Positions 1,668-42,785 are shown, counted from the stretch's first letter. The stretch: DNA of 64,000 nucleotides from Patescibacteria group bacterium (GCA_041753515.1 JBGSUE010000040.1:8290-72289); one strand, 5' to 3'. Notes: generated from the sequence alone by a model not told the origin. Numbers and translations: made by a program.

Positions 1668-3774
1668 TGTTATAAGGCATGACAAGAATATACATTTCTT
1701 GCCACTTTCGCCCTCTTTATCCCGAATAATAGAAATTATATACAGTTTTCACACGCATATACACGTATAATTTCACAGGATACGTATGTTCGTAAGTCAA
1801 TCAGTCACTCAAAGGTGAAAATATATATATGTCTTATATCAATAGCCTAAATCAATCTAGCACTCATTGGTTATAAGTGCCATTTAACATAATTCGGAGC
1901 TAAATTATCTTGCGGGAATAATTAAATTGAATAGAAATATATTCGTGAATATTTACACCTCGATATGATAAAATAATTATTATAAGTTTTATAATAAACA
2001 TATTATCGGTTATAAGCTAGTTATAGATCGTTATAACGGTATTATTATTTCCCGGATGGATAATTTATTGATCAAGTAGTACTGAGTAATATACTGCATA
2101 TATTATTAAATATTTATTTAAATATGATGTCCTATGGTATAGAAATCTGCGGCTAAATATGTACATGCGTTAAATCGTGAATAGTAATTTTTACACTCAG
2201 GCATATTCCTCATCCTATTCATACAGATATTGATTCATCAAATAGATATGCATCGCTTCAAATTTATTTGCATAGATATACTTTATCAAAGCTTATTCCG
2301 GCATCCTAAAATATTTTCTTACCATTAGTATTTCAGTATTATGATCATGTAGACAAAAAAATCTGCCATTTCCTCGTTTTCAATTTATTCCAACGTACCT
2401 GCTCATACCTTCCACTATTTTATTTTTGTACAATAGGCTCTTGAATATGTATTCACCAGAAGTCGAAGAAACTAGCGAAATGTTTTTGCACTAAATGGAA
2501 TACGGGAATACCGTAAGTATCAATGAACCAGTTCATGATGGTTACTTACCAGATTCACACTTTATGTTAAAAAATAATTACATCATTGATTAATGACAAA
2601 CTACAAATGCTCACTGCTCTCATGTCTGAATGTACCCGACTTTTAAACACGTACAATAAAAACATCACTTTTTTCTTTTGTCGTAAAATATTCAACTCTC
2701 CTCCACTTTACATTTTTAATAGTTATTGATACGTCGTAAAAATTTTTATGAAATTTACATTATACATATAAAAATTTAAAAATTCTCACTATTGCATAAT
2801 AAACCTATAATATATTCTTCTTTTTATAATTATCTTTCCGTCACTAGTCGTACAAAATATTTTGGTATACTCTGCTCTAAAGATACAAATCTAATCTCAT
2901 ATACGTCGTAAAATTTTATATCAAATAAACATACCGGTAATACATATTTATTAAATCGTCGTAAAATATATACATTATCTGTCGAACGGCCTCACGAACA
3001 GGATTACAAATTTTCAGGAGAAATATTTATTAATTAGCCAAACTCAACCGAATATAATAAAACGGGATACAGACATCCACCAATTATTTCATTATATTGA
3101 TTCTATATACACATCTCTATTATTACTTCAGCATTTTACACTTCAATATCAATATAGTACTAAATGATATTTAAAACATCTATATATTATTTAATATTCT
3201 TTTTTATATATTAATACGACTTAAATGGATTGTTCTTGCGTGAGCCCCATAACCGAATCTGCATATCTTTAAATCTTTCATTAGAATACAGAGAAATTCC
3301 GCATACCTTTCCATTTTCAGTCGGACTCCGGGTGTTTGAAAAACCTTTCACTGTCATATTCAACGCAATCCCCATTCTTTATCCGACGTGCGCGATTCAC
3401 GGCTACTATTGTGCTCTGTTCAGTTCACTATCTATGCCGGTTGAGGAATTTTTCATCCGTTATATGGCATTTCAAAGGCTTACGGAAATGAGAGTTTTTT
3501 TATTAACTTTAGACTGTCATGTCAGTATGAAATATGAAATACTTTGAGGCTAAATTAGCAATCTCACTCTCTCATCTGCTAAATATCAATAATATCATTA
3601 GAACAGGAAAATCGTGGTTTTTGAAGCTAAAATATACTATATACTCCTCACTTTCCCCGAGTCATATTCATTTTTCAAACAATAACTATCTTATAGGACT
3701 CACCAAACTGATGTCAATTTTTCACTTTTTCCGGATTTCTATATCTAAAGATATCAATGAAGGACTTAACTACA
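1668..3774. other. 2.1-kb AT-rich region with no credible ORFs, between the leuS start and the 3' end of the pilin cluster
   Basis: Base composition far more AT-rich than flanking CDS. Stops in all six frames. The only track ORFs (3230-3547, 3534-3887) are low-complexity. Confidence 0.6.
2678..2970 (+). repeat. five same-orientation direct repeats of core [T]ACGTCGTAAAAT (iteron-like), spaced about 52-116 bp
   Basis: Copies at about 2678-2690 (ttgtcgtaaaata), 2730-2742 (tacgtcgtaaaaa), 2846-2860 (tagtcgtacaaaata), 2902-2917 (tacgtcgtaaaatttt) and 2955-2970 (atcgtcgtaaaatata). Confidence 0.6.
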
Positions 3775-4290
3775 TCAGTCAGCACAGAGGCAGAAATTGC
3801 GGTTCGCAACCGTACATTCCGCAGCGCAATTTGCACTGCATTTGGATACACTCGATGATATGTCCGGATCACCTGGATTCTCCATGACGGTCGCTAAACA
3901 AAAATCATCACCGGATATCTTTTGAGTATACGTCCAGCCATCATCAACTCCCGGATCCATGTCCGGCCATTGTTTCATATATTGCGTATCACACCCGCCT
4001 CCGCCGGCTGCAAAATCGTAGTCCGTACACACAGAACCATCACACACTTGGTCCCCAGCCGCCCCGCACCCCTGAATACTTAATCCTGCTGTATTTGCTG
4101 GATATATTCCATAATCATTGTAATACAGCCGCAAGGCGGTTTTCATCTCCCCAAGTTCGGTCTTGCGCTTTACATCCCGCGCCCTCTGCCGTATTCCCAT
4201 AAAATTGGGAACAATTAGACCGATAATCGTGGCAATCACACCGATGACCACAAGTATCTCTATAAGCGTGAATGCTCTATGCTGTTTCAT
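3775..4290 (-). CDS. type IV pilin-like protein (prepilin N-terminal methylation domain; Cys-rich C-terminus)
   Basis: MKQHRAFTLIEILVVIGVIATIIG... has the class III signal peptide G/FTLIE. RK-x-ELGEM motif is shared with its neighbours. Confidence 0.8.
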   Translation of the reverse strand: MKQHRAFTLIEILVVIGVIATIIGLIVPNFMGIRQRARDVKRKTELGEMKTALRLYYNDYGIYPANTAGLSIQGCGAAGDQVCDGSVCTDYDFAAGGGGCDTQYMKQWPDMDPGVDDGWTYTQKISGDDFCLATVMENPGDPDISSSVSKCSANCAAECTVANRNFCLCAD

Positions 4291-4294
4291 ATAT

Positions 4295-4834
4295 TTAGTT
4301 TAACACTTTATTTGTACTCGTGACACCGAAATTACATTCTATCAACGTAGTCTTACCACACTTCAATAAACCGATCGGATCATTGTAATCGTCAGGATTT
4401 CCTGAACCATCATGAAGAGCATCCTGATCATCTAAATTTTCCAACCGTGCATATAGTTTAAAAAAAGTACCTGAAGCATCGCTCAGATAATAGTAAGTCT
4501 GCGTTGATTTCGGGTCTGACGGCAATTCCGCCATATATATGACCTCATTCGGACTCACCCCTTGCTTCATCATATCACCCCAATTGCATGTCACCTGTCC
4601 TGTATCTCCACAGGCATTCATTCTTCCATTTGTTGTCATTTTTGGAAAAGATCCAAAATCCTGATAATAAATCTCTATGGCTTTTGCCATTTGGGCAAGG
4701 TCGCTTTTGCGTTTGAGATCATTTCGCTTCATCATCGTTGCCCGGTAGCTGCCGATAGCACCCACGGCTAAAATAGCTAAAATTGCCATCACGACGATTA
4801 TTTCAATAAGCGTGAAGCCACGATTTTTATTCAT
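4295..4834 (-). CDS. type IV pilin-like protein
   Basis: MNKNRGFTLIEIIVVMAILAILAVG..., KRKSDLAQMAKAIEIYY. Confidence 0.8.
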   Translation of the reverse strand: MNKNRGFTLIEIIVVMAILAILAVGAIGSYRATMMKRNDLKRKSDLAQMAKAIEIYYQDFGSFPKMTTNGRMNACGDTGQVTCNWGDMMKQGVSPNEVIYMAELPSDPKSTQTYYYLSDASGTFFKLYARLENLDDQDALHDGSGNPDDYNDPIGLLKCGKTTLIECNFGVTSTNKVLN

Positions 4835-4844
4835 ATCATCTCTA

Positions 4845-5294
4845 TTATGGCACTAATGGTACACCACTCGTCAATCCGTAATTCACACCCGGCTCCAATC
4901 CACAGGCTGTTGCCGTACATCCCGCTTTTACTATATCAGGATCTGATGTCTGTTTAAGTGTTGCAAATATCCTATACCCGTCACACGATCCAATCTTTCG
5001 GTACAGATACTGTTGTTTGGTCTCCGGATCGCAGACAAATCTGTTCATGCCCTGATTTTCAAATGCAGTTGAACCGCAGATGGAAGGATCGTTGAGCGTG
5101 GCTTCATCGGGATAGCACCCGGTGTCATTGAAATACTGCTCCAGCATCACTTTCATCTTGGCAAGATCCTGCTTCCGGCGCCCGTCAAATCCTTTTTGAA
5201 GCTGTGCCATCCAGTTTGTGTATCCGGCTGCCAGTAGTAGCGCCATGATGGCTATCACAATCAGAAGTTCCATGAGGGTAAAGCCTCTTCTCAT
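4845..5294 (-). CDS. type IV pilin-like protein (start trimmed to MRRGFTLMELLIVIAI; the track ORF extends to 5372)
   Basis: The prepilin leader is normally 5-7 aa ending in G before FTLxE. RRKQDLAKMKVMLEQYF is paralogous to the two upstream pilins. Confidence 0.75.
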   Translation of the reverse strand: MRRGFTLMELLIVIAIMALLLAAGYTNWMAQLQKGFDGRRKQDLAKMKVMLEQYFNDTGCYPDEATLNDPSICGSTAFENQGMNRFVCDPETKQQYLYRKIGSCDGYRIFATLKQTSDPDIVKAGCTATACGLEPGVNYGLTSGVPLVP

Positions 5295-5313
5295 ATTTTC
5301 AGTATAATACAAC
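5295..5313. promoter_or_regulatory. 19-bp divergent intergenic region with overlapping -10 elements for two leaderless-type starts (TATAAT 5303-5308 on plus; TATACT from 5301-5306 on minus)
   Basis: Sequence is CAT(5292-94) attttcagTATAATacaac ATG(5314). Each -10 lies 5-6 nt from its start codon. Confidence 0.4.
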
Positions 5314-7383
5314 ATGATCCAGTTGTATATCTTTACAGAGAAAGCCCACGTAGGTATGATGGGGTCTATCATGACATCACGGATTGCTTTGGCAATACTC
5401 CTGTCTACAGTTGCAGTTTTTTATACCGGGTTCGGTGAGATATTCCAAACGCCGAAATTTTTTCTTCTGACTGGATCGACCCTCATACTCCTGTGTATTT
5501 TGGCCGTCAGGATAGTATTCGTCAACCGTATACCCATCCCGCGAATCGGCCTATGGACCGGATTTCTTGCTCTTGCCGTATCCTCGCTGATCACAACGGT
5601 ATTTTCCGGTTCAAACATCAGCGACCAGCTCAACGATCCTGTTGCCAGCCCATGGGTATTTTTCAGTCTTGCCCTTCTCTCGCATTTCTTACAGACTGCT
5701 TCTACCCGGGGAGCCACAACACTGCGATATACATATATCATCCTCGTCTCTATCCTTTCGATACTTTCCATCTATATGTACTTTGGTCTGGGAGAGATCA
5801 TGTTTCCGGCATCAGATATCCTGAAAGACAAACTATTTACTCCTGTTGGCAATCCGTATGTGCTTTTTGCACTGCTCGTCATGGCTATACCGGCGATTCT
5901 TTTTTCCATACAAAACGCGTACAGGCATACCCGGGATATTGATGTAGGACTCTATACCATAGCCGGGCTCTTGGTTCTCACCGGTACCGCTTTTTTAGGT
6001 ATCCAGCTTGCCCAAACAGCTTCAACATCACTCCTGCCCCTTTCTTCCGCCTGGTCAATACTCATGGAATCATATAAGACGTTTAAAAATGCGCTCGTCG
6101 GTGTGGGTTTGGACAACTATATCAGCGCATTCAATGCCGGCCGTCCGGCACAGCTCAACACAACACCCATCTGGAATCTCCGGTTCACTTCAGGCCCAAG
6201 CTTATTTTTCCATATTGGGGCAACTCAAGGATTGGTGGGGATCTTTGCATTTTCCGTATTTCTTATAAACATCGTGAAGTCAGTGAAAAATAACCCGGCA
6301 TGGTATAGGTTCAGTACGATTTTTCTTGCCGTGCTGTCCCTCTTTATCATCCAGCCTCATCTTGCCCTGTGGACGGGTCTCATATTCATCCTTCTTCCAC
6401 TCACGAAAAATTCCAACTCAAACCACGATGCATATCTCATCATTCATCAGCGCTGGGTTGCATGGGTTACTGCATCCGCGACTATTCTTGGCTGTGCCAT
6501 CCTTTTCATCTTCTGGTGGCGTTCTCTTATGGGAGAAATTGTATTCGGCCAGTCTTTGTCTGCCGCCTCCAATAATGACGGTAAAAAAACGTATGAAAAG
6601 CAAATTCAGGCAATCGGGTATAAACCGGACAAAACAGCATTCCATATCGCCTATTCCCAAACCAATATATCACTAGCAAATTCCATTGCTTCACAGGCCG
6701 AAAACAACCTGAATACGCTCACTGAAGAAGACAAAACTCTTTTCTCTCAACTTATCCAGCAGGCCGTCAGGGAAGCGAAAACTGCCACAACTCTCTCGCC
6801 AAGAAACGTCCTGGCATGGGAAAATCAGGCTAAAACGTATCAGGCGATTGCAGGTGTCGTCACCGGCTCCGACCAATGGGCAATCGCATCGTATCAGGAA
6901 GCCATCAAGCTGGATCCGACGAATCCGCTTCTTCGCATGGACCTTTCAGGTCTCTTTATGCGTTTGGGTAAATTTGACGAAGCGATCCAGGAGCTCAAAA
7001 CTGCCTCGTATCTCAAAAACGATCTTGCCAATATCCACTACAACCTCGCCTATGCTTACGGACAAACAAAGGCGTATTATAACCAGGCTGTAGAGCTCAA
7101 ACGGACAGCAGCGCTTATCGATCCCTCAAGCGAGGATGCAAAAAAAGTAGAAGATACACTGAAAGAGGTTGTAATCGAATTAAATGAACAGGAAAAAACC
7201 TCTTTTTCTGAAATTGTGACCGGTATTCCGGCAATAGACCAGATCCCGCTCTCAACTCCAAAACCCGAACCGGTTTTCGAGATCGAACCGAAGCTGGATA
7301 TTCTCCCCGAAGAGGCAACAACATCTTCCTTACCGCACCCTTCCCCAGAGAGCACCGGCGGAGATGAAACAGTAGAGAACTAA
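5314..7383 (+). CDS. O-antigen ligase (Wzy_C/WaaL/PglL-PilO) family polytopic membrane protein with C-terminal TPR repeats; candidate pilin O-oligosaccharyltransferase
   Basis: About 12 TM segments. Wzy_C-like block GVGLDNYISAF...SLFFHIGATQGLVGIFAFSVFL. C-terminal TPR-like AYYNQAVELKRTAALIDP. Divergent from the pilin genes. The start could instead be MMGS at 5356. Confidence 0.65.
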   Translation: MIQLYIFTEKAHVGMMGSIMTSRIALAILLSTVAVFYTGFGEIFQTPKFFLLTGSTLILLCILAVRIVFVNRIPIPRIGLWTGFLALAVSSLITTVFSGSNISDQLNDPVASPWVFFSLALLSHFLQTASTRGATTLRYTYIILVSILSILSIYMYFGLGEIMFPASDILKDKLFTPVGNPYVLFALLVMAIPAILFSIQNAYRHTRDIDVGLYTIAGLLVLTGTAFLGIQLAQTASTSLLPLSSAWSILMESYKTFKNALVGVGLDNYISAFNAGRPAQLNTTPIWNLRFTSGPSLFFHIGATQGLVGIFAFSVFLINIVKSVKNNPAWYRFSTIFLAVLSLFIIQPHLALWTGLIFILLPLTKNSNSNHDAYLIIHQRWVAWVTASATILGCAILFIFWWRSLMGEIVFGQSLSAASNNDGKKTYEKQIQAIGYKPDKTAFHIAYSQTNISLANSIASQAENNLNTLTEEDKTLFSQLIQQAVREAKTATTLSPRNVLAWENQAKTYQAIAGVVTGSDQWAIASYQEAIKLDPTNPLLRMDLSGLFMRLGKFDEAIQELKTASYLKNDLANIHYNLAYAYGQTKAYYNQAVELKRTAALIDPSSEDAKKVEDTLKEVVIELNEQEKTSFSEIVTGIPAIDQIPLSTPKPEPVFEIEPKLDILPEEATTSSLPHPSPESTGGDETVEN

Positions 7384-8346
7384 ACCGGTGAAAAACCCCT
7401 TCACGGCAAACGGAAGCCCCTTTTCCTGATACATGAATACGAGAAATTTCCGGATGAGAAATATGTGAAACAGCAAAATGAAACCAAGAATCGATGCGAT
7501 CAGTCCGGGAATCATACCAAACGGCATCCAGTATGCAAGTGCACTCACGAGTATGAGAACTCCAAACAATCCTACCACACCCACCCCGGAGAGTGCGGTG
7601 ATGGCTTCCTGAAGCGTAGTTGCCACAGGGTCAAAGCGCTTCCGGTGTGAATACAGTTTGGTCCAGTAGTATGCCCGCAGGAAATATTTTTTGGCAATCG
7701 GCCAGAAATCCTCAAATTCATGATGCACCCGGACACTCGGCGCGAATATGATGGCATATCTTCTGGCGATCCGGTAGGTTAGCTCGATATCCTCAACGAG
7801 CGCCCCCGGATACTTTTCATCAAACCCACCAAGACGCAAGAATACGGATTTTTTAATCGACGCAATGCGTGTTGAAAACAGAAAGTAGTAACCGGATTTA
7901 TCCCGTTCGTTGATCCAGTAACTCCAATCCCGCAGAGCTTTGAAATTCGGAAAGAATGCGTCTGTTTTCTGCTCTTTTACCCATACACCGGTTACTGCCA
8001 CGACGTCGGGGTCGTCCTGATAGATATTGGCAAGATTGGCAAGCGTATCGGGAAACAGCACGACATCTGAATCTAAAAATACAAGAAACTTGCCTCTGGC
8101 TTCTTTGGCACCCCTGTTCCTGGCCGCCGCCGGTCCTTTGTTTTGTTTTACGTTTATTATTGTTAAAATTTTATTCTTTTTTTGAGATTTGGGATTTGGG
8201 ATTTGGAACTTTACCCTACTTCCATCATCAACCACAATCACTTCATATGCCGGTGCCTTTCTTGAGGCATAAATTGAGTCCAGAAGTACCCCAATCGTCG
8301 CCTCGCTATTGTGGTATGGAATGATGATGGAGAGATACGGTTTCAT
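7330..8346 (-). CDS. family 2 glycosyltransferase with low-complexity insert and C-terminal TM helices
   Basis: IIIPYHNSE...VVDDGS...NKGPAAARNRGA...FLDSDV. Insert VKFQIPNPKSQKKNKILTIINVKQ sits between the DDGS and NKG blocks. Confidence 0.8.
   Translation of the reverse strand: MKPYLSIIIPYHNSEATIGVLLDSIYASRKAPAYEVIVVDDGSRVKFQIPNPKSQKKNKILTIINVKQNKGPAAARNRGAKEARGKFLVFLDSDVVLFPDTLANLANIYQDDPDVVAVTGVWVKEQKTDAFFPNFKALRDWSYWINERDKSGYYFLFSTRIASIKKSVFLRLGGFDEKYPGALVEDIELTYRIARRYAIIFAPSVRVHHEFEDFWPIAKKYFLRAYYWTKLYSHRKRFDPVATTLQEAITALSGVGVVGLFGVLILVSALAYWMPFGMIPGLIASILGFILLFHIFLIRKFLVFMYQEKGLPFAVKGFFTGLVLYCFISAGALWGRVR
8186..8206. repeat. perfect heptanucleotide tandem repeat (GATTTGG)x3 inside the GT2 CDS; minus strand CCAAATC x3 encodes PNPKSQ
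   Basis: Direct reading: gatttgg gatttgg gatttgg. 21 bp, so in-frame. Confidence 0.75.
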
Positions 8347-9495
8347 TTATTGAAGTTTTTTCAGTATCCGGACAGCGTGGGTATTGATATATTCCAACTG
8401 CAATTCTGTCATCCCTGCAAATATAGGCAAACGCACAATTGTGGCTGCAACATCATCTGTCATGGGCAGCTTCCTTTTAGCTCCACCCAGCTTTTTTCCC
8501 ATCGGAGACGAATGAAGAGGTACATAATGCATAGAAACCTCTATGCCTTTTTCTCTCATACCGGCAATAAAATTTTTACATCTATCCGCTGAGTCGAATT
8601 TTAAAGCATAGATATGCCAATTCGGTTCTATCATTTCAGGCGGTACACATGGAAGTTGAACGAATTCAAACTGTAAAATTTCTTGTGTATACATATCTGC
8701 TATAGACTTTCTTAACAGATTTATTTCTTTAATCTGATCAATTTGTGTGTTCACAAGGGTTGCAAGCAGATCGGTGAGCATATAGCTCGATCCTTCCCCT
8801 ACCCACCGGTATATAGACACTTTTCCGGCAAGAAATGCTGCCCTGTCTGTGCCGATTGCACGCAGTATTTCAAGCTTGTCAAAAAGATCGTCATTATTTG
8901 TCACAAGCGCACCACCCTCTCCCGCTGCTACATTTTTCGTGCCATGAAAGCTGAACGCTCCCGCATTCCCTAAAGTCCCAAGATGCCTCTTCTTACCCCG
9001 ATATCTCATATATGAACCAATGCAGTGGGCTGCATCCTCTACAAGCCACAGATTGTGCGCTTTGGCAAGCTGTATAAGGTCTAAAAATCCTTTTCCTGCC
9101 ATACCGGCGTAGTGGACCGTTATGATGCCGACGGTTTTTTTTGATATCACCCTCTCTACATCTCTCGGGTCAAGGCAATATGTCGCGGGATCAATATCCG
9201 CAAATACCGGCCTGGCGCCTTTTATCATTGCAGCAGTAGCTGTGGATGCGAGCGTAAAACTCGGTACAATCACCTCATCACCGGCTTTTGCACCCAACGC
9301 CCAGACCGCCATGTCCATCGCACTTGTTGCCGACGTTACCGGCAATGCATGTGTAGCGCCAGTGAGTAATGATAGTTTGTTGCGCAGAATTTGACTTTCT
9401 GGCCCGTCCGCCACACCACTACCTTCCCGCATTGCGCGGATTATCGCCTTCTCTTCTTTCTGTCCCCAATATGGCTTGTGCAAAGGAATATGCAT
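8347..9495 (-). CDS. DegT/DnrJ/EryC1/StrS-family PLP-dependent sugar aminotransferase (ArnB/WecE-like)
   Basis: 382 aa. DAAHCIGS...FSFHGTKNVAAGEGG is the PLP-Lys region. Abuts the GT2 stop. Confidence 0.85.
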   Translation of the reverse strand: MHIPLHKPYWGQKEEKAIIRAMREGSGVADGPESQILRNKLSLLTGATHALPVTSATSAMDMAVWALGAKAGDEVIVPSFTLASTATAAMIKGARPVFADIDPATYCLDPRDVERVISKKTVGIITVHYAGMAGKGFLDLIQLAKAHNLWLVEDAAHCIGSYMRYRGKKRHLGTLGNAGAFSFHGTKNVAAGEGGALVTNNDDLFDKLEILRAIGTDRAAFLAGKVSIYRWVGEGSSYMLTDLLATLVNTQIDQIKEINLLRKSIADMYTQEILQFEFVQLPCVPPEMIEPNWHIYALKFDSADRCKNFIAGMREKGIEVSMHYVPLHSSPMGKKLGGAKRKLPMTDDVAATIVRLPIFAGMTELQLEYINTHAVRILKKLQ

Positions 9496-9498
9496 ATC

Positions 9499-9590
9499 AA
9501 TTATGAATTAATAATTACGAATGACGAATTTAATAAGGTAAATATTGCACATATCAATTCATAATTCATAATTCGTAATTCATAATTTCT
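9499..9590. repeat. inverted pair of (AATTCRT)n heptamer arrays flanking a 22-bp spacer, between the acetyltransferase stop and the aminotransferase start
   Basis: Left arm 9499-9533 is in reverse orientation. Right arm 9556-9590 reads aattcat aattcat aattcgt aattcat aatttct and overlaps the last codons (KKL) and the stop of the upstream gene. Confidence 0.7.
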
Positions 9591-10116
9591 TAATCGTTCT
9601 AGCCGGAACTCCTGCAACAACTGTTTTATCAGGAACATTTTTCGTAACAACCGCTCCTGCTCCAACCACCGCGTTTTCACCCACTTTGACTCCGGGCAAG
9701 ATGATTGCACCTGTTCCGGTATACGACCCTTTTTTAAATACAACTCCATCTTCTTTTGTGGGATATGAATCCTGAAGCGGATGGTCCGCATACCCGACGT
9801 TGATATGCGATACGACGCTCGTCCGGTTTGAAAGTGTCACATCGTCCCCAATCTCTATACCGCCCCGCACATCCAGCATAACCTCATCACCTACAAAACA
9901 CCTGTCGCCTATCGTTAAACGCGAAAAACCGTAATGATAAAGATTGGCAAGCGTAATATTGCCGATAATGGTATCGCGTCCGATCCGTGCGCCAAAAAGG
10001 CTCATAAGCAATACCCTGCTTTGGGGCAAAATACATAAATGGAGAATTTTGACTATTACACCATAAAAAACAAACTTAATAGCCTTCGCAAAACCAATGC
10101 TTTGAAGAGCCTTCAT
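9580..10116 (-). CDS. hexapeptide-repeat (LbH) sugar N/O-acetyltransferase (PglD/WbbJ-like)
   Basis: IGDRCFVGDEVMLDV...IGDDVTLSNRTSV...VGENAVVGAGAVV are left-handed beta-helix repeats. Confidence 0.75.
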   Translation of the reverse strand: MKALQSIGFAKAIKFVFYGVIVKILHLCILPQSRVLLMSLFGARIGRDTIIGNITLANLYHYGFSRLTIGDRCFVGDEVMLDVRGGIEIGDDVTLSNRTSVVSHINVGYADHPLQDSYPTKEDGVVFKKGSYTGTGAIILPGVKVGENAVVGAGAVVTKNVPDKTVVAGVPARTIKKL

Positions 10117-10124
10117 ACATACGT

Positions 10125-10250
10125 ATTATATACCCATCTTACTCAGGTTTGCAGCTCCGATGGAGCAAAAAGCTGATTACCTGCCTGCCGGCAGGCAGGG
10201 ATGGGTGGATACTAAAAAACTGCATACATACCTGAGTTTTTTTAGTATAC
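10125..10250. repeat. palindromic intergenic element (termini ACTCAGGT...ACCTGAGT) containing the perfect 20-bp palindrome CCTGCCTGCCGGCAGGCAGG at about 10180-10199
   Basis: Direct reading. The same 20-mer recurs at about 53502-53521. Confidence 0.65.
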
Positions 10251-10257
10251 ATGTTTT

Positions 10258-10289
10258 CAATTCGTAATTCGTAATTCATAATTGTTAAT
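10258..10289. repeat. (AATTCRT)n heptamer array: aattcgt aattcgt aattcat aattgtt
   Basis: Direct reading. Overlaps the stop of the GT2 at 10285. Confidence 0.7.
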
Positions 10290-11037
10290 TTTCTCTTACT
10301 TCACCCTGTTTTGTAATCAACCGGCGCCACAGACCAAAAAGACTTTGCATATAATCAATCGTATCAGGTATCAGATTCACGGTCGAGCGTTTATCGATCC
10401 TGCGCAGGAATAAAACCGGCACTTCCCTGATGCGAAGATTCGCAGCTCTGGCAAACACCATAATCTCCGTATCCCAAAACCAGTGTGCATGCCGGGTTTT
10501 CGTCAGAACCGGCAAGATTTTTTTCCTGTTGAAGAATTTATAACCGCTTTCCGTATCCATTTTATTGGTTCCCACCATCTTGTCTGAAAGATACCGGTAT
10601 CCGACGCTCGCAATTTCGCGGATGATCGAATGGATATTCGTACGGTATACCCGTGTTCCGATCACTACATCTGCGTCATCATTCATGATGATACGGACAA
10701 TCTGTGGGATATAAACAGGCGATACTTCAAGATCGATATCGATATATCCTGCAACTGTTGCGCGCGAAGCCCTGATACCATCCATGACTGTTCTTCCCCG
10801 CCCCATGTTTTTTTTGTGGAAAAGTGCTTTCCAGTTTTTATGGATTTTGAGCTCATGCCTGATAAGTTCAGGAGTGGAATCAGTTGAGGCATCGTCCACA
10901 AATATGATCTGCCACCTGAATCCTACATCGGATAAAACGCTTTCGATCGTCCGGACACTCTGGACAAAATGTCCTTCCTCGTGATATGTGGGAAGAATGA
11001 GGGAAAAATCGAACCGCGTGGACCGTTTTTTCTTCAT
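10285..11037 (-). CDS. GT2 polyprenyl-phosphate sugar synthase (DPM1/ArnC/GtrB-like)
   Basis: FSLILPTYHEE...FVDDASTDST...IDIDLEV...TRVYR. Sits between a GT-C gene and the aminotransferase/acetyltransferase pair, an Arn-like arrangement. Confidence 0.8.
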   Translation of the reverse strand: MKKKRSTRFDFSLILPTYHEEGHFVQSVRTIESVLSDVGFRWQIIFVDDASTDSTPELIRHELKIHKNWKALFHKKNMGRGRTVMDGIRASRATVAGYIDIDLEVSPVYIPQIVRIIMNDDADVVIGTRVYRTNIHSIIREIASVGYRYLSDKMVGTNKMDTESGYKFFNRKKILPVLTKTRHAHWFWDTEIMVFARAANLRIREVPVLFLRRIDKRSTVNLIPDTIDYMQSLFGLWRRLITKQGEVREN

Positions 11038-11096
11038 ATAATAGCTTTCTATGGTACTCTAAAAACCTATAATATGCAATTTCTTTATCATTGCCT

Positions 11097-11178
11097 GTCA
11101 TTCTGAGCCCCCGAGCACTAGAGGCGAAGAATCTCATCATGTCCAATAAATAGATTCTTCACTTCGTTCAGAATGACT
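11097..11178. repeat. inverted-repeat element E1 (type A: TGTCATTCTGAGC...GAAGAATCT / AGATTCTTCACTTCGTTCAGAATGAC)
   Basis: Near-perfect palindrome about 60 bp upstream of the GT2 start at 11037. Confidence 0.7.
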
Positions 11179-12592
11179 ATAATCGTTTCAACAATGTCTC
11201 ATCACCATCGACGGGTTCATAGCGTGCGTAAATATACTGCTGCCATGCCCATGGAAGCGTACTCACCCTTTTCAAACCACTCTGATAAATATACGGGACA
11301 CGATTTTCCTCAAGAATACGGGGCAAATCCGGCAAAGGACGGGAGAGATATCCGGCAAACTGCCCGAACGGGATACAGCAGGCATAATACGCGTCCGGGT
11401 TGTACAGAAATACACCTGTTAGATCCAAAATCTGCTCGTCTTTTGGTACGTCTCTGTAATATTCTTCCACCTGTTTGATAAAATCAGCATTGGTCCAGGC
11501 TTGTTTCGGAATTGTTACCTCATTAAAAACTGATACCAAAAACAACGCGAGAACGGCAAAAAGTGGTAAAAATATTATTTTTGGTATACGGATACTCAGA
11601 TACAAAACAAAATCGGCAGCATACCACGCGATAAACACACCTATCGGGATTAAATACTGGGCATGTTTGAGAGGTGCAAACTGGACAAAAAAGATGATTT
11701 GTGCCCACATCTGAAGGCTGATAAGTACTTCCGATTTCGATTTTGCCGATATCAGGCGATAGACGGAAAAGAGAAGGGCAAGTACCCATATGCTGTGATT
11801 GACAAGTAGCCCCCTGTTCCACCCGTCCACGCCATAATAGATACTGTTGGGATAAAAAAACAGGTCCTGCATCATGATAAACGTCTGACTTATTTTGTTG
11901 GCTTCAACCGGTAACTTGAACAGTGAATAAAATACCAATGGAAAATTTCCAAGCGTTAAAACCCAAATCCCAAATACTGCCATCGGAATCGTCATGCCCA
12001 TTATGAAAGGTTTCAGTTTCCTGCTCAATACTGCCATACCAAATCCTATGGCAATATTAGGCACCATTTTGGGCAAAACCAGATACGACAGAGCATACAA
12101 CGCCCCCGACACCATATGTTTCTTTTTTATCTGAAAATAGATAGCAGCCAATAAAAGAAGTGTTGCCAGGTTATCCGGCCGGATTTCCAGATACTTGTCA
12201 AACGGAAGAGGCAGAAATGCCAGAAGTGCGGCGGCAAGAACAGCTCCCCAGACACTTTTTCTCACCTCCCAAAAAATCATACCGGACATGACACACATCA
12301 TGGCAAATATCCAGAACGTCATGATCCGTGCCGTGATGAAAGGCTGGACTGTTCCCCATCCGGGCACGAGAGCAGAAATCAGGCTTACGGCATATCCGGG
12401 TGGAAAAAACGTGAGGAATTCGATATACGGTTTTTTTCCCTCCATCATTTTTGCAGCCCAGTGGAGGTGCGCAAACTCATCGGCATCAAAATAACGTGTC
12501 AAACCCAAACGGTAATGATACGAGAGAAAGTACAGAAAAAGAAATCCAGTAGCGACGAATAGTATTATCCGGTATATCTGTGTGGATTTCAT
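11177..12592 (-). CDS. GT-C-fold membrane glycosyltransferase, ArnT/PMT-like (start trimmed to MKSTQIYRIILFV)
   Basis: Polytopic protein. First-loop motif RYFDADEFAHLHWAAKM is the DxD/DE motif of GT-C. Paralog of 57056-58714 (RFFDSDEMSHMHWAW). Confidence 0.65.
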   Translation of the reverse strand: MKSTQIYRIILFVATGFLFLYFLSYHYRLGLTRYFDADEFAHLHWAAKMMEGKKPYIEFLTFFPPGYAVSLISALVPGWGTVQPFITARIMTFWIFAMMCVMSGMIFWEVRKSVWGAVLAAALLAFLPLPFDKYLEIRPDNLATLLLLAAIYFQIKKKHMVSGALYALSYLVLPKMVPNIAIGFGMAVLSRKLKPFIMGMTIPMAVFGIWVLTLGNFPLVFYSLFKLPVEANKISQTFIMMQDLFFYPNSIYYGVDGWNRGLLVNHSIWVLALLFSVYRLISAKSKSEVLISLQMWAQIIFFVQFAPLKHAQYLIPIGVFIAWYAADFVLYLSIRIPKIIFLPLFAVLALFLVSVFNEVTIPKQAWTNADFIKQVEEYYRDVPKDEQILDLTGVFLYNPDAYYACCIPFGQFAGYLSRPLPDLPRILEENRVPYIYQSGLKRVSTLPWAWQQYIYARYEPVDGDETLLKRL

Positions 12593-12611
12593 AGATAGAT
12601 GATACCGGAGT

Positions 12612-13064
12612 GTGCTATACTTTTCCAGCTTGTCCAAAGGTCGAACCGTCGACGCCCTTTTACATCCCCCAGAATGGAGAAAAAATGAAAACATCGAGTT
12701 GTTCGTACTGAGAATTGCAGAATGGGCACTCATCGCCCTGTCCGTAACCGGCACACTGCTGGGCGCAGCAACACTGTTCTCGCCCCAATCGGCGCCATGG
12801 GGTCCGATCACTGTCATCACCGGACTCATTCTGAATACGGTATTGGTGATTCATGCATGGCGCGCAAAGAGAGAACCTGTCCGGCAGTTTCATCCGTACC
12901 TATATCTGGTAGCCGTGATCCTCTTTTGCGTATTCGTCGGCTATTGGATTCTCACAGGGCTGATGGGTGAAGCGCTCTTCTCATACATGACGTTAGTATT
13001 GGCGATGGCGCTTCATGTCATCCGGCTGTCCACACCCCGGCTCAGAGCCCACTGGGCAAATTGA
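12612..13064 (+). CDS. small hydrophobic membrane protein, hypothetical
   Basis: 150 aa with 3-4 TM segments and coding-like composition. Overlaps only the doubtful N-extension of the GT-C ORF. Confidence 0.4.
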   Translation: MLYFSSLSKGRTVDALLHPPEWRKNENIELFVLRIAEWALIALSVTGTLLGAATLFSPQSAPWGPITVITGLILNTVLVIHAWRAKREPVRQFHPYLYLVAVILFCVFVGYWILTGLMGEALFSYMTLVLAMALHVIRLSTPRLRAHWAN

Positions 13065-13348: not shown

Positions 13349-14242
13349 ATGCCTGAAATATCACCGCAAACACAACAACTTCTGAAGGAATACACCGGCG
13401 GCATACCCAGGGATTCAAAAATTATCTCCGATAACAGCGCCACAGGTATCATCTCGGTATTGGAATACACATCCGGTAAACTTGCCGTAAAAAAAGCAAA
13501 AGAGCCTGATTTGCCAACCCGGGATGAAAATAGAATACTTGTAAGACGGGAAGCAAAAAATCTCGACGCAATATCCACAACCAAATATGCAAAAAATGTT
13601 CCATACGTTGCCGATGTGAAAGACGATGAAAAAGGCGTGAGTATTGTTATGGAGTATCTGGATGGTTATAAGAATCTGGATGAACAGATCAACTCCTATC
13701 CCCCCCTTGAACAACTGCAGATACTTTCACAAGCCAAACAGATCCTGGATGGTATTCAGGCTGATGCCCACATCACTCACCTTGATTTTAGCTTCGGCAA
13801 TATTATGGTGAAGGGCCTCGGAAAAAACCTGAAATTAAAGATAATTGATTGGGCCCAGGCAGTACCCAATGGTAATAATAAGCAACTCATTCAATCAGAA
13901 CAGTATTTCCTGTCATCAATGAACAAAATTATTCGAGGTGAACCCATACTCAGCGAAAAAATCCGCACCCTCACCACAGACCTGGAGACTATGACCCCTG
14001 AATCAGCAAAAAAGGCTGTCAACAGCTTCCTTGATCAAGCCAGACAACGGTACGCAACATATGCAACTCATGAACAATCCCGAAAGTTCAATCTGGACGT
14101 GATTGACAGCATCAGTATTTACAACAAATTGACACCAAAAGACACAGTGCAGAAGATTCTGGAATCCATTGAGCAAAAAACTGGAGAATATACAACAATT
14201 CCTGTATTTTACGAAAAAGAGCCTATTCCTGGCTGGACATGA
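13349..14242 (+). CDS. atypical protein-kinase-fold protein, Kdo/WaaP (lipopolysaccharide kinase)-like
   Basis: LAVKKAK (beta3 Lys), RREAKNL (alphaC Glu), catalytic ITHLDFSFGNIMV, and IIDWAQA in place of DFG. Confidence 0.5.
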   Translation: MPEISPQTQQLLKEYTGGIPRDSKIISDNSATGIISVLEYTSGKLAVKKAKEPDLPTRDENRILVRREAKNLDAISTTKYAKNVPYVADVKDDEKGVSIVMEYLDGYKNLDEQINSYPPLEQLQILSQAKQILDGIQADAHITHLDFSFGNIMVKGLGKNLKLKIIDWAQAVPNGNNKQLIQSEQYFLSSMNKIIRGEPILSEKIRTLTTDLETMTPESAKKAVNSFLDQARQRYATYATHEQSRKFNLDVIDSISIYNKLTPKDTVQKILESIEQKTGEYTTIPVFYEKEPIPGWT

Positions 14243-14925
14243 TGAGTGCTTCTGATCGTTTAAAACTGCTGGACGATATGGCCGGTGCTATGCAGGATAT
14301 TCACGATAACGGATTCGGATTTGAAGATTTCGGCATGCACCGTTTTGTCATTGAAATACCAAAAAAAGAGCAGGGAACGGTACAGACACATCTTATCGAT
14401 TATTCCGGCGCTATCCATCATCCATCCGAAGAAATCCTTGCAGATTCCCAATCATACCTCCGCCACACAGCATTCCATATCCTGACTCGTTCGGCAAACC
14501 ACATTCCTCCGGAAACATTTCGGGAAGTGGCTTTGATATTCGATGAACAGATTCCGTACAGGGATGCACTGGCACGCATACGCAAAGCAATCCAAACTGA
14601 CCGTACTCATACATACTGGGAAAAAGACGATCCCGATCCCATACCGATATCCTTTCTAGACAAGGCATATAATCTGCAGGATTTACACAGAAATGGATTT
14701 ATCTATCCACACTACCTTCGCAAAGAGACTTTTGCAGGAGGTCCATACGCATATGACGATACACTCCCGTCGCCCAGCTTGGAATCAATTAAAGAAACGA
14801 ATCTTGAGGATTTAGGATATTTTACGATATCAGAAATCAAAAACAGCCCTGTTATTAACCCTAAACTCGCAGACTGGGCAGTACAGCACGTCTACGGTGA
14901 ATCACACACCTACTGGCCTGTTTAA
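14239..14925 (+). CDS. kinase-like protein, C-lobe only (Kdo/WaaP-like catalytic segment MHDNGFGFEDFGMHRFVI...LIDYSGA); possibly a degenerate paralog
   Basis: ATGA start/stop overlap with the upstream gene. Lacks the N-lobe. Confidence 0.4.
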   Translation: MMSASDRLKLLDDMAGAMQDIHDNGFGFEDFGMHRFVIEIPKKEQGTVQTHLIDYSGAIHHPSEEILADSQSYLRHTAFHILTRSANHIPPETFREVALIFDEQIPYRDALARIRKAIQTDRTHTYWEKDDPDPIPISFLDKAYNLQDLHRNGFIYPHYLRKETFAGGPYAYDDTLPSPSLESIKETNLEDLGYFTISEIKNSPVINPKLADWAVQHVYGESHTYWPV

Positions 14926-38019: not shown

Positions 38020-38904
38020 CTACATCGATGAAATAATTCTGCGCACGATATTACCCGCAGTTAGACCGTGATATTTAAGGAGATTTTCGTAGGATGCACT
38101 TATTGGAGTAAAAATATCTTTCAATCCAAACTTTAATAATTTCATAGTCTTATTATTTTCGAGGATATACTCTCCCACTGCGCTCCCGAATCCTCCGGTC
38201 ACGCGGTGCTCTTCAATCGTTGCCGCTATTTTATAAGTCCTGCATATTTCTTTGAGACGTTTTTTATCCAGCGGGGAAATGATAGGAAACCTGAAAATAT
38301 TGGACCGGATACCAATTTTAAACAGTTTTTTCTGTACCTCATCCGCGAGCCATAATTTTGTTCCAGTTACAAGAAAAGCCATGTCTGTATTCTGCAAAGT
38401 CTGACTTTGCAGAACCTGACGGAGAGGATTCGCCTCGATTCTCAAATACGCAGGCGTACTTGTTTTGGCAAGTGATGCAGTAATTTTTTCGGTTTGTTGT
38501 TGATCGTGCGGGGAAACAATACCCATACCCGGAAGCATCCGCATGAGGGCGATATCTTCCATCGAGTGATGCGTAGGACCGGCTTTATTGTACGCAAGTC
38601 CTGCCCCAATCCCCACAATCTTAACGTTCAGGTTCTGCATGACAATATCGGTGCGGATTTGTTCATAGCACCTCATAGATGCAAACGTGGCAATTGAATA
38701 GATAAACGGTTTCCAACCCGCTGCTGCAAGTCCGGCGGCTACGGTCACCAGGTTTGCCTCGGCAACCCCTATGTTGATAAACCGGTCCGGAAATTTTTCG
38801 GTAAACGGCTCCAGAAACCGGTATCCCAAATCTCCGGTTATGAGCATGATTTTACTATCACGCTCTGCTGCTTTGATAAGTCCCCTGATAAACGCTGCTC
38901 TCAT
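38020..38904 (-). CDS. transketolase, C-terminal (pyrimidine-binding) subunit
   Basis: LITGDLGYRF...NIGVAEANLVTVAAGLA...GPTHHSMEDIALMR. Confidence 0.8.
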   Translation of the reverse strand: MRAAFIRGLIKAAERDSKIMLITGDLGYRFLEPFTEKFPDRFINIGVAEANLVTVAAGLAAAGWKPFIYSIATFASMRCYEQIRTDIVMQNLNVKIVGIGAGLAYNKAGPTHHSMEDIALMRMLPGMGIVSPHDQQQTEKITASLAKTSTPAYLRIEANPLRQVLQSQTLQNTDMAFLVTGTKLWLADEVQKKLFKIGIRSNIFRFPIISPLDKKRLKEICRTYKIAATIEEHRVTGGFGSAVGEYILENNKTMKLLKFGLKDIFTPISASYENLLKYHGLTAGNIVRRIISSM

Positions 38905-38921
38905 AATATTTTGTCATGCTG

Positions 38922-38973
38922 AGTGAAACGAAGCATCTCTTCACGAGATTCTTCACTACGTTCAGAATGACTC
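38922..38973. repeat. inverted-repeat element E4 (short variant), 18 bp upstream of the start at 38904
   Basis: tgtcatgctgagtgaaacgaagcatctcttcacgagattcttcactacgttcagaatgact. Confidence 0.6.
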
Positions 38974-38993
38974 AGTATATCCTTTTATCAGCT

Positions 38994-39767: not shown

Positions 39768-39802
39768 AATTCGTAATTCCTAATTCATAATTCGTAATTC
39801 TT
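39768..39802. repeat. (AATTCRT)n heptamer array: aattcgt aattcct aattcat aattcgt aattctt
   Basis: Abuts the tktN start and overlaps the last codons (ELRIMN) and the stop of the epimerase. Confidence 0.7.
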
Positions 39803-42745: not shown

Positions 42746-42785
42746 TGCCCATACTCCTTTCAATTTTTATATTTCGATAATAGTA

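Follow-up and report, generated by a model that had tools for sequence, protein, structure and literature searches.

The eukaryotic O-mannosyltransferases TMTC1-4 are polytopic transferases of lipid-linked sugars in which tetratricopeptide repeats (TPR) on the luminal, acceptor side of the membrane select the protein substrates. Among bacteria, the closest described systems are the O-antigen ligase WaaL and the O-oligosaccharyltransferases that share its Wzy_C-type fold, namely the pilin-specific TfpO (PilO) and TfpM, the general enzyme PglL (PglO) and the ComP-specific PglS. These transferases move an Und-PP-linked glycan en bloc onto Ser/Thr of proteins. TfpO and TfpM are proteins of 420-470 aa that have no TPR, depend on a conserved His (in TfpM, H286) and attach the glycan to a Ser/Thr at the C-terminus of the pilin, and their genes come after the pilin gene (PMC9829042). 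PglL homologues adjoin pilin genes in 21 of 31 cases (PMC3643930). The His is essential in WaaL, PglL, TfpO and TfpM alike (E. coli WaaL H338, Neisseria meningitidis PglL H349, TfpM H286) (PMC3643930, PMC9829042).

The locus described here comes from a Patescibacteria group bacterium (GCA_041753515.1 JBGSUE010000040.1:8290-72289), and the whole stretch of 64,000 nt that was analysed is referred to as the window. CPR/Patescibacteria are thought to need type IV pili in order to attach to their hosts and to take up DNA. We know of no experimental work on pilin modification in Microgenomates, and full-text literature searches found no paper connecting O-antigen ligase-like proteins with pilins in that group.

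The pilin trio

Three tandem type IV pilin genes had been proposed in a first-pass annotation of the window, and they are borne out by minus-strand ORFs, in each of which the N-terminal methylation motif of prepilins (PF07963/TIGR02532) was recognised, matches to TIGR01710 (GspG) being below cutoff.

3775-4290, minus strand: pilin 1, 171 aa, the trio's distal member; PF07963 E=4.3e-5, TIGR01710 (GspG-like) E=1.5e-12, below cutoff
4295-4834, minus strand: pilin 2, 179 aa, the trio's middle member; PF07963 E=2e-10, TIGR02532 E=7e-9
4845-5294, minus strand: pilin 3, 149 aa, proximal to the membrane protein gene; PF07963 E=1.4e-8, match from ORF residue 27
5295-5355, no strand: divergent intergenic region of ~61 nt, from the start of pilin 3 to where the membrane protein probably begins, read from the sequence

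The true start of pilin 3, as read from the sequence, is MRRGFTLMELL at 5294, and the mechanical ORF (4845-5372) extends beyond it. Each of the three fits the class III signal peptide pattern of a short basic leader, Gly/Ala at -1, Phe/Met at +1, Glu at +5 and a hydrophobic alpha1-N segment. Pilin 1 begins MKQHRA/FTLIE (Ala at -1, Glu at +5) and ends CLCAD, and is the orthologue of the distal pilin ending DYxxCAD in related loci. Pilin 2, with the leader MNKNRG/FTLIE, four Cys and the C-terminus TSTNKVLN, is the orthologue of the middle pilin type characterised by SSTN. Pilin 3 (MRRG/FTLMELL, C-terminus LVP) corresponds to the proximal pilin, as a rule rich in Cys, which is the type most often retained beside the membrane protein gene in other lineages. 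The Ala at -1 in pilin 1 is a less common variant. A shared motif, (K/R)RK-x-DL-x-x-(M/I), had been singled out in the first-pass annotation; pilins 2 and 3 match it exactly, but pilin 1 reads KRK-T-EL-GE-M. The alpha1-helix signature D-x-x-[RK]-K-x-[DE]-L is present in 39/39 aligned module pilins, and the motif is a general GspG-like alpha1 signature, so that it is nothing special to the trio.

The acceptor sites suggested for the pilins were not found. None of the three ends in Ser/Thr (the last residues are D, N and P), only 1/47 module pilins ends in Ser and 0/47 in Thr, and the aligned module pilins have no conserved Ser/Thr column, no low-complexity Ala/Ser/Pro acceptor and no Cys-flanked ComP-like sequon that could be identified. 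Machinery of the PilB/PilC/PilD/PilM type gave no Pfam match in the scanned window ORFs (most of those of at least 110 aa, the smallest and those of the last 2 kb apart) and may sit elsewhere in the genome. For the divergent intergenic region, a promoter consensus scan yielded 9 occurrences against 7.2 expected from shuffled sequence, which is not above expectation.

A WaaL-fold membrane protein with a TPR domain

Divergent from pilin 3 across the ~61 nt gap is the gene of a polytopic membrane protein that carries TPRs at its C-terminus, a placement that recalls the oligosaccharyltransferase genes that adjoin their presumed pilin substrates or, in the case of PglL and PglS, are frequently beside pilin-like targets.

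5356-7383, plus strand: WaaL-fold/TPR membrane protein gene, 675-689 aa (689 aa for the ORF from the first ATG at 5314); from the ORF and relatives
5356-6570, plus strand: membrane domain, residues 15-419, about 11 transmembrane helices
6031-6201, plus strand: large conserved loop, residues 240-296, predicted to be extracytoplasmic; from hhalign against WaaL and column statistics
6580-7209, plus strand: TPR domain, residues 423-632, predicted to be extracytoplasmic
7210-7383, plus strand: disordered Pro/Ser/Thr/Glu-rich C-terminal tail and stop codon, pLDDT 46-85 beyond about residue 632

Alignment with relatives suggests the start at 5356. The AF2 model has a pLDDT of 92.9, and a helix count of 11 would place the C-terminus, and with it the TPR domain, on the outside of the cell. 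The last 54 nt of the tail region overlap the 3' end of a convergent GT2 gene, and an identical convergent overlap is seen in three relatives' loci (L010, L012 and L017).

The divergent protein had been annotated at first pass as a Wzy_C protein with a TPR tail. Its orientation, polytopic nature and TPRs are confirmed, but the Wzy_C hit was not obtained by direct HMM search: PF04932 was matched neither by the whole protein (E<=0.01) nor, even at E<=10, by the membrane domain taken alone, and the NCBIfam ligase models gave no match either. A complete absence of Wzy_C matches, which the first-pass annotation had itself named as refuting its proposal, thus holds at the level of direct HMM search. 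The protein is only 11% identical to WaaL (Cupriavidus metallidurans, PDB 7TPG/7TPJ; E. coli). Nevertheless it has a WaaL-type polytopic fold, and the solved structure nearest to it is that of a glycan ligase with a lipid acceptor. Pfam Wzy_C is matched by 10 of 72 relatives at E<=0.01 (best 2.4e-7), and comparison by hhalign of a profile of 150 family members with one of 21 WaaL sequences gave a probability of 93.6% (E=2e-7, 66 columns), with residues 247-318 aligned to C. metallidurans WaaL 269-336. Kinship to O-antigen ligases is thus visible through relatives, profile-profile comparison and fold only.

The differences from the known enzymes are considerable. TfpO, TfpM, PglL and PglS are of 420-600 aa and have no additional extracytoplasmic repeat domain (PMC9829042), whereas the window protein is longer, with a TPR domain of ~210 aa that, like the disordered tail, distinguishes it from WaaL too. 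The position of the essential His (E. coli WaaL H338, C. metallidurans H313) is occupied in the alignment by Pro295, and among 150 family members the column holds S 117, A 7, G 7, T 6, R 6, P 4 and H 1 (S 78%, H <1%). Neither is the invariant WaaL Glu (C. metallidurans E318) conserved in the family. PglL_A (PF15864) did not match the window protein, nor did it occur among the 25 commonest families listed for 72 relatives, and residues of the R298/H349/R224 type found in PglL/PglS were not recovered. Classing the locus as a PglL/TfpO-type system is therefore not justified, the essential His, the PglL_A motif and Ser/Thr acceptor sites all being absent. Conservation within the protein is all the same highest in the counterpart of the WaaL active-site loop, where K255, G263, G265, R/K277, N282 and W287 are the invariant positions, and the constrained residues comprise three basic positions (K48, K255 and R/K277) together with N282 and W287. 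The E. coli WaaL residues R215 and R288 fall outside the confidently aligned hhalign block. With its catalytic His absent, the protein could be non-catalytic or could use other chemistry. The resemblance to TMTC1-4 lies in the design idea and is an analogy, not a demonstrated sequence relation, the fold there being PMT-like GT-C and here WaaL-like.

Distribution of the family and its linkage to pilins

The family, with 6268 cluster representatives at E<=1e-3 that are typically of 650-730 aa and of the same membrane and TPR architecture, is Microgenomates-wide; the lineages named for its loci are Gottesman-, Woese-, Ames-, Roizman-, Shapiro-, Beckwith- and Collierbacteria, or Microgenomates/Patescibacteria groups. 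A pilin cluster is present in 27/79 Microgenomates loci. The density of prepilin ORFs is 0.177/kb within 1 kb of the family gene (26 pilin-like genes in 147 kb) against 0.0047/kb at 3-8 kb (2 in 429 kb), an enrichment of ~38-fold, although the counted loci are phylogenetically related and such statistics overstate their independence. Three arrangements occur, in which the pilins form the divergent trio, are represented by one Cys-rich gene upstream in the same direction, or lie downstream in pairs. The second, with the pilin directly upstream on the same strand in many loci, is like pilA-tfpO and pilin-tfpM (PMC9829042). The enrichment and the 27 loci in three arrangements indicate that the linkage is not due to chance, and the variety of arrangements argues for a maintained linkage rather than frozen synteny.

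About two thirds of the family loci have no adjacent pilin, and in many of these other secreted or surface proteins, such as giant surface proteins and anchored proteins, adjoin the family gene. A single N-terminal anchor or signal was predicted for the immediate upstream neighbour in 35/67 loci, compared with 176/666 other ORFs (Fisher p=1.9e-5). Varied secreted neighbours of this kind would fit a general PglL-like system. The surroundings of the family gene repeatedly include housekeeping genes as well (LysM-M23 peptidase, Rho, LeuRS); they were named from sequence motifs of representatives and, for the LysM-M23 peptidase and Rho, also from Pfam labels of one locus (P0005).

The amino-sugar block and the glycan island

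Beyond the WaaL-fold gene lies a block of minus-strand genes in which the first-pass annotation had recognised a lipid-linked amino-sugar operon.

7330-8346, minus strand: GT2 glycosyltransferase, 338 aa, hydrophobic C-terminal region, convergent with the WaaL-fold gene; PF00535 E=2.3e-28, PF13632 E=2.1e-10
8347-9495, minus strand: DegT/WecE-like sugar aminotransferase, 382 aa; PF01041 E=7e-84
9580-10116, minus strand: hexapeptide-repeat acetyltransferase, 178 aa; PF00132, PF14602, WcaF-like E=1.7e-24, below cutoff
10285-11037, minus strand: polyprenyl-phosphate glycosyltransferase-type GT2 (DPM1/ArnC/AglJ-like), 250 aa; PF00535 E=2.8e-21
11177-12589, minus strand: polytopic membrane protein, possible GT-C-type transferase, ~470 aa (550 aa for the mechanical ORF, to 12829)

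The first four assignments stand, but the putative GT-C protein has no Pfam match of its own and no PDB sequence match. A weak PMT_2 match was found in 2/9 of its orthologues and paralogues (best E=2.6e-4), FDxDEF near the N-terminus is conserved in the group, and the window has a paralogue at 57056-58714. The gene at 11177-12589 is syntenic in 8 loci. The aminotransferase scored 336.6 bits with NF008687 (dTDP-4-amino-4,6-dideoxygalactose transaminase), under the cutoff of 375, and the best NCBIfam matches of the polyprenyl-phosphate-type GT2 (AglJ, ArnC and PpgS) were every one below cutoff; the cluster to which this GT2 belongs (c8) was found in 9 loci. Homologues of the convergent GT2 lie downstream of the family gene in 17/79 loci, mostly directly after it and convergent with a median offset of 15 nt, which makes the membrane GT2 its most constant enzymatic neighbour. 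The amino-sugar genes are conserved together with the WaaL-fold gene in the closest relatives: the aminotransferase and the acetyltransferase are both syntenic in two loci (L007 and L010), and the same two keep the complete 9-gene block.

The window is occupied by a surface-glycan island of ~55 kb, at the edge of which the WaaL-fold gene is situated, and whose genes include numerous GT2s and sugar-modifying enzymes alongside a set of at least 15 GT-C-like polytopic paralogues. An initiating phosphoglycosyltransferase (Bac_transf/Glycos_transf_4), a flippase (Polysacc_synt/MATE, Wzx) and Wzz gave no Pfam match in the scanned window ORFs, 12 of which matched no Pfam family at all, so that this negative is not exhaustive.

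Proposed function

The pairing of pilins with the WaaL-fold protein probably marks a module for the glycosylation of pilins or other surface proteins, and pilin glycosylation is the best single guess for this locus. We put at roughly 0.4 the probability that the WaaL-fold/TPR protein is an extracytoplasmic glycan transferase acting on surface proteins, here the pilins. The donor would be a polyprenyl-phosphate-linked sugar or oligosaccharide supplied by the convergent membrane-anchored GT2 and the set of aminotransferase, acetyltransferase and DPM1-like GT2; the WaaL-fold protein would move the glycan onto secreted surface proteins while its TPR domain held the protein acceptor, and in this bacterium the glycan would go to the three adjacent pilins, the proximal one especially. 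Its action would be like that of a pilin O-oligosaccharyltransferase, yet outside the PglL, TfpO, TfpM and PglS families. Glycosylated pili, as first suggested, are thus partly supported: they gain from the conserved pilin linkage and the amino-sugar genes, but lose from the absence of the His, of PglL_A and of a Ser/Thr acceptor and from the many loci that have no pilin.

It is more speculative, and rather doubtful, that the His-less family is what carries out protein O-glycosylation in Microgenomates (CPR) and forms a fifth class of O-oligosaccharyltransferases with a mechanism of its own, with K48, K255, R/K277 and N282 replacing the Arg/His site and the TPR domain selecting pilins and surface proteins. 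Since the His is considered indispensable in all four known classes, its absence implies either an extended catalytic repertoire of the WaaL fold, which if true would be relevant to glycoengineering, or the recruitment of an enzyme fold to a non-catalytic role in pilus biology. A widespread, pilin-linked family with a WaaL fold and predicted extracellular TPRs represents a testable candidate for surface-protein glycosylation in uncultured bacteria.

Among the alternatives, the one that survives best, although we consider it unlikely, is that the protein handles a surface glycopolymer that is not protein, either polymerising it in the manner of Wzy or, in the manner of WaaL, ligating it to a wall or lipid acceptor, that the TPR domain contacts the wall or partner proteins and that pilins are nearby through the clustering of surface genes. 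The lipid acceptor of the closest solved structure, the position of the gene at the edge of a glycan island, the membrane GT2 as steadiest enzymatic neighbour and the majority of loci without pilins would all be explained, and the lack of the ligase His would suit polymerases of the Wzy type, which to our knowledge function independently of it. The flippase, chain-length regulator and initiating transferase that such a pathway would call for were, however, not detected in the scanned ORFs, and the TPR domain suggests a protein partner. Bacteria of this lineage are generally described as having no outer membrane and no LPS, and hence no lipid A-core acceptor. Nor can the clustering of surface genes by itself account for an enrichment limited to the first 1-2 kb and spread over three arrangements.

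[quoted passage not shown] Similarity to these three is no better than to the unrelated TPR proteins OGT (17.2) and MamA (16.9), pilus machinery genes were not found with the pilin/WaaL-fold pair among the ORFs scanned, a glycosyltransferase partner is conserved, and the strong conservation of the active-site-loop homologue (G263, G265, R/K277, N282, W287) fits a ligand-binding or catalytic site. That pilin adjacency has no functional meaning and reflects one clade's inherited gene order and chance is very improbable, for although the divergent trio is restricted to the closest relatives and the recurring LysM-M23 peptidase, Rho and LeuRS show that plain synteny is retained, pilin-like genes are scarce in the 3-8 kb flanks and the association survives, in varied orientations and on both sides of the gene, among proteins only 27-35% identical to that of the window.

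Gene layout around the pilins

The layout proposed in the first-pass annotation, a pilin trio, a divergent gene for a membrane protein with a TPR domain and an amino-sugar block, proved correct by the ORF list and by Pfam/NCBIfam searches. The membrane and TPR protein is referred to here as the family protein, and its Microgenomates-wide relatives as the family.

Genes at 3775-12829
3775-4290, minus strand: pilin 1 (distal), leader MKQHRA/FTLIE
4295-4834, minus strand: pilin 2 (middle), leader MNKNRG/FTLIE
4845-5372, minus strand: ORF of pilin 3 (proximal), true start ATG 5294, 149 aa, leader MRRG/FTLME
5314-7383, plus strand: ORF of the family protein, divergent from the pilins
7330-8346, minus strand: GT2, convergent with the family gene
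8347-9495, minus strand: DegT/WecE-like aminotransferase
9580-10116, minus strand: hexapeptide acetyltransferase
10285-11037, minus strand: GT2 whose best matches are polyprenyl-phosphate glycosyltransferases (AglJ, ArnC, PpgS)
11177-12829, minus strand: polytopic membrane protein

All three small ORFs matched the prepilin N-terminal methylation motif PF07963 (E=4e-5 to 2e-10) and TIGR02532, and over their first 70-130 residues they also matched a GspG-type pseudopilin model, at scores under its curated cutoff. The start of pilin 3 was set at ATG 5294 because the PF07963 match opens at ORF residue 27. Alignment with relatives suggests that the family gene starts at ATG 5356 and not at 5314, so that about 61 nt would separate the two divergent starts; a promoter and terminator consensus scan around this region gave no excess over shuffles. 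The motif said to be shared by the three pilins is present, with EL instead of DL in pilin 1, but it is a general signature of the alpha1 helix, D-x-x-[RK]-K-x-[DE]-L being kept in 39 of 39 aligned module pilins (those encoded near family genes). The label 'GT-C' for the 11177-12829 protein can be retained only tentatively, as the protein itself had no match and just two of nine relatives touch PMT_2 (at 2.6e-4); a conserved FDxDEF lies close to the N-terminus. At its 3' end the family gene runs 54 nt into that of the convergent GT2 (7330-7383), and similar overlaps of 11-46 nt occur among relatives (loci L010, L012 and L017; L numbers denote related loci in other genomes).

Remote homology to O-antigen ligases

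The family protein had been taken for a member of the Wzy_C family, an identity that direct HMM searching failed to recover. Against Pfam it matched TPR models only (residues 480-600) and not Wzy_C, the isolated membrane domain gave nothing relevant and no ligase family at E<=10, and NCBIfam returned sub-threshold TPR families only, again with no ligase family. Nothing relevant was found when a membrane-domain sequence profile was compared with the PDB, and an hhalign comparison of the family with the single E. coli WaaL sequence was insignificant (E=0.15). A word-indexed search of 5.8 billion proteins yielded four relatives with 24-42% identity over the best local alignments, none of them with a precomputed Wzy_C domain. 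The five-sequence profile made from these and the window protein, scored against 1.84 billion cluster representatives, retrieved 6268 proteins at E<=1e-3, of which 732 reached E<=1e-30; almost all measure 650-730 aa. Among 72 sampled members TPRs were found in about 64, Wzy_C_2 in one and PF04932 Wzy_C in ten at E<=0.01 (best 2.4e-7), and hhalign of the family against a WaaL profile, built from E. coli WaaL, the 7TPG sequence (Cupriavidus metallidurans WaaL) and homologues of both, gave a probability of 93.6% (E=2e-7) over residues 247-318. On the strength of these Wzy_C matches and the WaaL profile alignment, the family protein is a remote homologue of O-antigen ligases that has the same fold and lies beyond the reach of the Pfam model; the Wzy_C identity thus stands solely as remote homology, seen by profile-profile comparison and through relatives. 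Kinship of the TPR domain with PilW, PilF or Tgl was rejected as non-specific, since unrelated TPR proteins score equally high or higher.

A usable AF2 model built from 150 sequences predicts 11 long helices ahead of the TPR domain and a disordered tail of about 55 residues rich in Pro, Ser, Thr and Glu. The loops alternate between K/R-rich and K/R-poor in the pattern for an N-in protein, which would expose both the TPR domain and the conserved loop of residues 240-296 on the cell exterior, in agreement with the periplasmic site of the homologous WaaL loop.

Three residues in the Wzy_C region of WaaL and PglL are functionally important, R215, R288 and H338 in E. coli WaaL and their equivalents R224, R298 and H349 in Neisseria meningitidis PglL (PMC3643930), and a histidine is needed in every class of O-oligosaccharyltransferase tested, e.g. 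H286 of TfpM (PMC9829042). The hhalign alignment puts Pro295 of the window protein at the position of this histidine (H313 in C. metallidurans, H338 in E. coli), and in the 150-member alignment 117 sequences have Ser in this column and a single one has His. The counterpart of C. metallidurans E318, invariant in WaaL, is H, Q or E in about equal shares, and the predicted outer loops of the family hold no conserved His or acidic residue. That the family protein descends from a ligase but has lost catalysis and serves as a scaffold associated with pili is an alternative that we regard as unlikely. Basic residues are kept at K48 (99% basic), K255 (95% basic) and R/K277 (99% basic), together with N282 (98%), W287 (97%), G263, G265 and G306.

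Linkage to pilins and other neighbours

With the five-sequence alignment as query and each species represented by a single genome, a related-locus scan found at least 476 relatives. The 80 best loci are Microgenomates-type CPR wherever their records name a lineage (Gottesman-, Woese-, Ames-, Roizman-, Shapiro-, Beckwith- and Collierbacteria); many of the others are labelled as 'uncultured Gammaproteobacteria' or 'Pseudomonadales' MAGs and three stand under other names. The former labels (L008, L011, L014, L018 and many more, some sharing the window's pilin and GT2 neighbours) are probably wrong or serve as placeholders.

Prepilin N-termini were counted in these loci by a regular-expression scan of ORFs. 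Within 1 kb of the family gene 21 prepilin ORFs lay upstream and 5 downstream, followed by 8, 3 and 2 upstream at 1-2, 2-3 and 3-8 kb and none downstream at any of these distances. Density on both sides thus fell from 0.177 per kb within 1 kb (26 in 147 kb) to 0.0047 per kb at 3-8 kb (2 in 429 kb), a ratio of about 38-fold, and all-vs-all ORF clustering independently found a single pilin cluster of 47 genes at 27 of 79 loci. Three arrangements were seen: the divergent upstream trio of the window (closest relatives L007, L009-L012, L016, L020 and L025); one Cys-rich pilin of 200-300 aa directly upstream on the same strand (e.g. L048, L053, L063, L064, L066, L076, L077, L082 and L083), which resembles the pilA-tfpO layout; and downstream pilin pairs (L031, L041 and L052). 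Each member of the trio represents an orthologous type of its own: the distal ends in ...DYxxCAD, the middle in ...SSTN..., and the proximal, usually Cys-rich, is the one that distant lineages retain. The whole nine-gene block is kept in order and orientation in two Gottesmanbacteria (L007 and L010), and at 17 loci a convergent GT2 is again found downstream of the family gene, mostly directly after it. At L039, L055, L069 and L072 a pilin, a 280 aa N-terminally anchored protein and the family gene follow one another on one strand, suggesting that in some lineages the Cys-rich pilin, the anchored protein and the family gene form a three-gene operon. The anchored protein, of about 280 aa, has a PTGSYLSPLP motif and no Pfam match and also occurs at the P0002 locus L002 (3166-4008).

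An adjacent pilin is absent at about two thirds of loci, and three of the first distant homologues inspected likewise had none. The directly upstream neighbour had a single N-terminal hydrophobic anchor or signal in 35 of 67 cases, compared with 176 of 666 other ORFs (Fisher p=1.9e-5), but the loci share descent and such p-values therefore overstate independence. The stronger argument is that the link survives changes of orientation among proteins only 27-35% identical; synteny without meaning is the least probable of the explanations considered, and we give it little credence.

In place of a pilin, the gene immediately upstream at many pilin-free loci encodes some other secreted or anchored protein, which may be a giant repetitive surface protein, an S8 protease carrying CARDB/DUF11 domains or a small protein whose leader resembles that of a lipoprotein. 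The giant repetitive or multidomain proteins (1100-2400 aa; L008, L010, L013, L026, L028, L078, L080, L085 and others), one with S8 protease and CARDB/DUF11 and one with LamG, are encoded immediately before the family gene or a little past the trio and are alternative candidate acceptors. At 12 loci (e.g. L021, L033, L035, L043, L045 and L046) the directly upstream gene, often on the opposite strand at a distance of 83-104 nt, encodes a cluster c6 protein of about 225 aa that looks from its sequence like a REP/IS200-type transposase.

A candidate for surface-protein glycosylation

The best-supported reading, to which we assign a probability of about 0.4 and whose functional part we infer, is that the family protein would act as an extracytoplasmic glycan transferase with a WaaL fold, its TPR domain engaging secreted protein substrates, which in the window would be the adjacent pilins, and its donors deriving from the neighbouring lipid-linked sugar genes. 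This agrees in outline with the pilin glycosylation idea of the first-pass annotation, but in several respects the protein falls outside the PglL/TfpO type. Unlike enzymes of that type the family protein has neither the histidine nor PglL_A and differs in size and architecture, and unlike the pilins of those systems the module pilins have no C-terminal Ser/Thr acceptor; nor was there a conserved Ser/Thr column among the 39-47 examined. Less likely than transfer onto secreted proteins, though still a serious alternative, is a role in polymerizing or ligating a surface polymer other than protein; the pilin-free loci speak for it, the TPR domain and the pilin linkage against it.

In the literature library searched, no paper connects O-antigen-ligase-like proteins and pilins in Patescibacteria, the sole related statement found being a software-predicted O-glycosylation of three Saccharibacteria pilins (PMC12206443). 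The family protein, pilin-linked and of O-antigen-ligase fold, carries a TPR domain and is devoid of the canonical histidine. It is a well-defined candidate for glycosylating surface proteins in CPR, and its putative active site is unexpected.

The surrounding glycan island

The window amounts to a surface-glycan island, roughly 55 kb long. Encoded in it are several GT2s, NAD-dependent sugar epimerases/dehydratases, two DegT aminotransferases, methyltransferases, a sulfotransferase, an APH-type kinase, PMT/PMT_2- and YfhO-like proteins and three unannotated groups of polytopic paralogues. Among the window ORFs scanned, Pfam revealed neither type IV pilus machinery nor a Wzx flippase, a chain-length regulator or an initiating phosphoglycosyltransferase. 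Polytopic membrane proteins of 400-675 aa, most without a Pfam match, number at least 15 within about 50 kb (11177-61014) and look like a large expansion of GT-C-like extracytoplasmic transferases; by start coordinate the paralogue groups are 11177/57056, 17707/24746/27717/49979/51860/55463/59515 and 29363/48611/54221, and outside them are two PMT_2-like proteins and one YfhO-like. Two adjoining plus-strand ORFs occupy 13349-14925, the first with a weak RIO1 kinase-domain match (E=3.4e-9) and the second with none. A split transketolase-like pair, an APH-type phosphotransferase, a sulfotransferase and a methyltransferase at 38020-44194 hint at phosphorylated, sulfated or methylated sugars.

Between the LeuRS gene, which starts at about 1667 on the minus strand and is cut off by the left end of the window, and the stop codon of pilin 1 lies a 2.1 kb AT-rich stretch (1681-3775; windowed GC 0.32-0.39 against about 0.44 elsewhere), which has short ORFs only, the longest of 117 aa within its last 250 bases. 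Rfam and tRNA searches gave no match, and a decayed giant-surface-protein gene, the gene type found there in relatives, was rejected when tblastn detected no remnant. Within 235 nt of this stretch CGTCGTAAAA occurs exactly three times on the plus strand (0.12 expected), and there is a fourth near-copy at about 2680.
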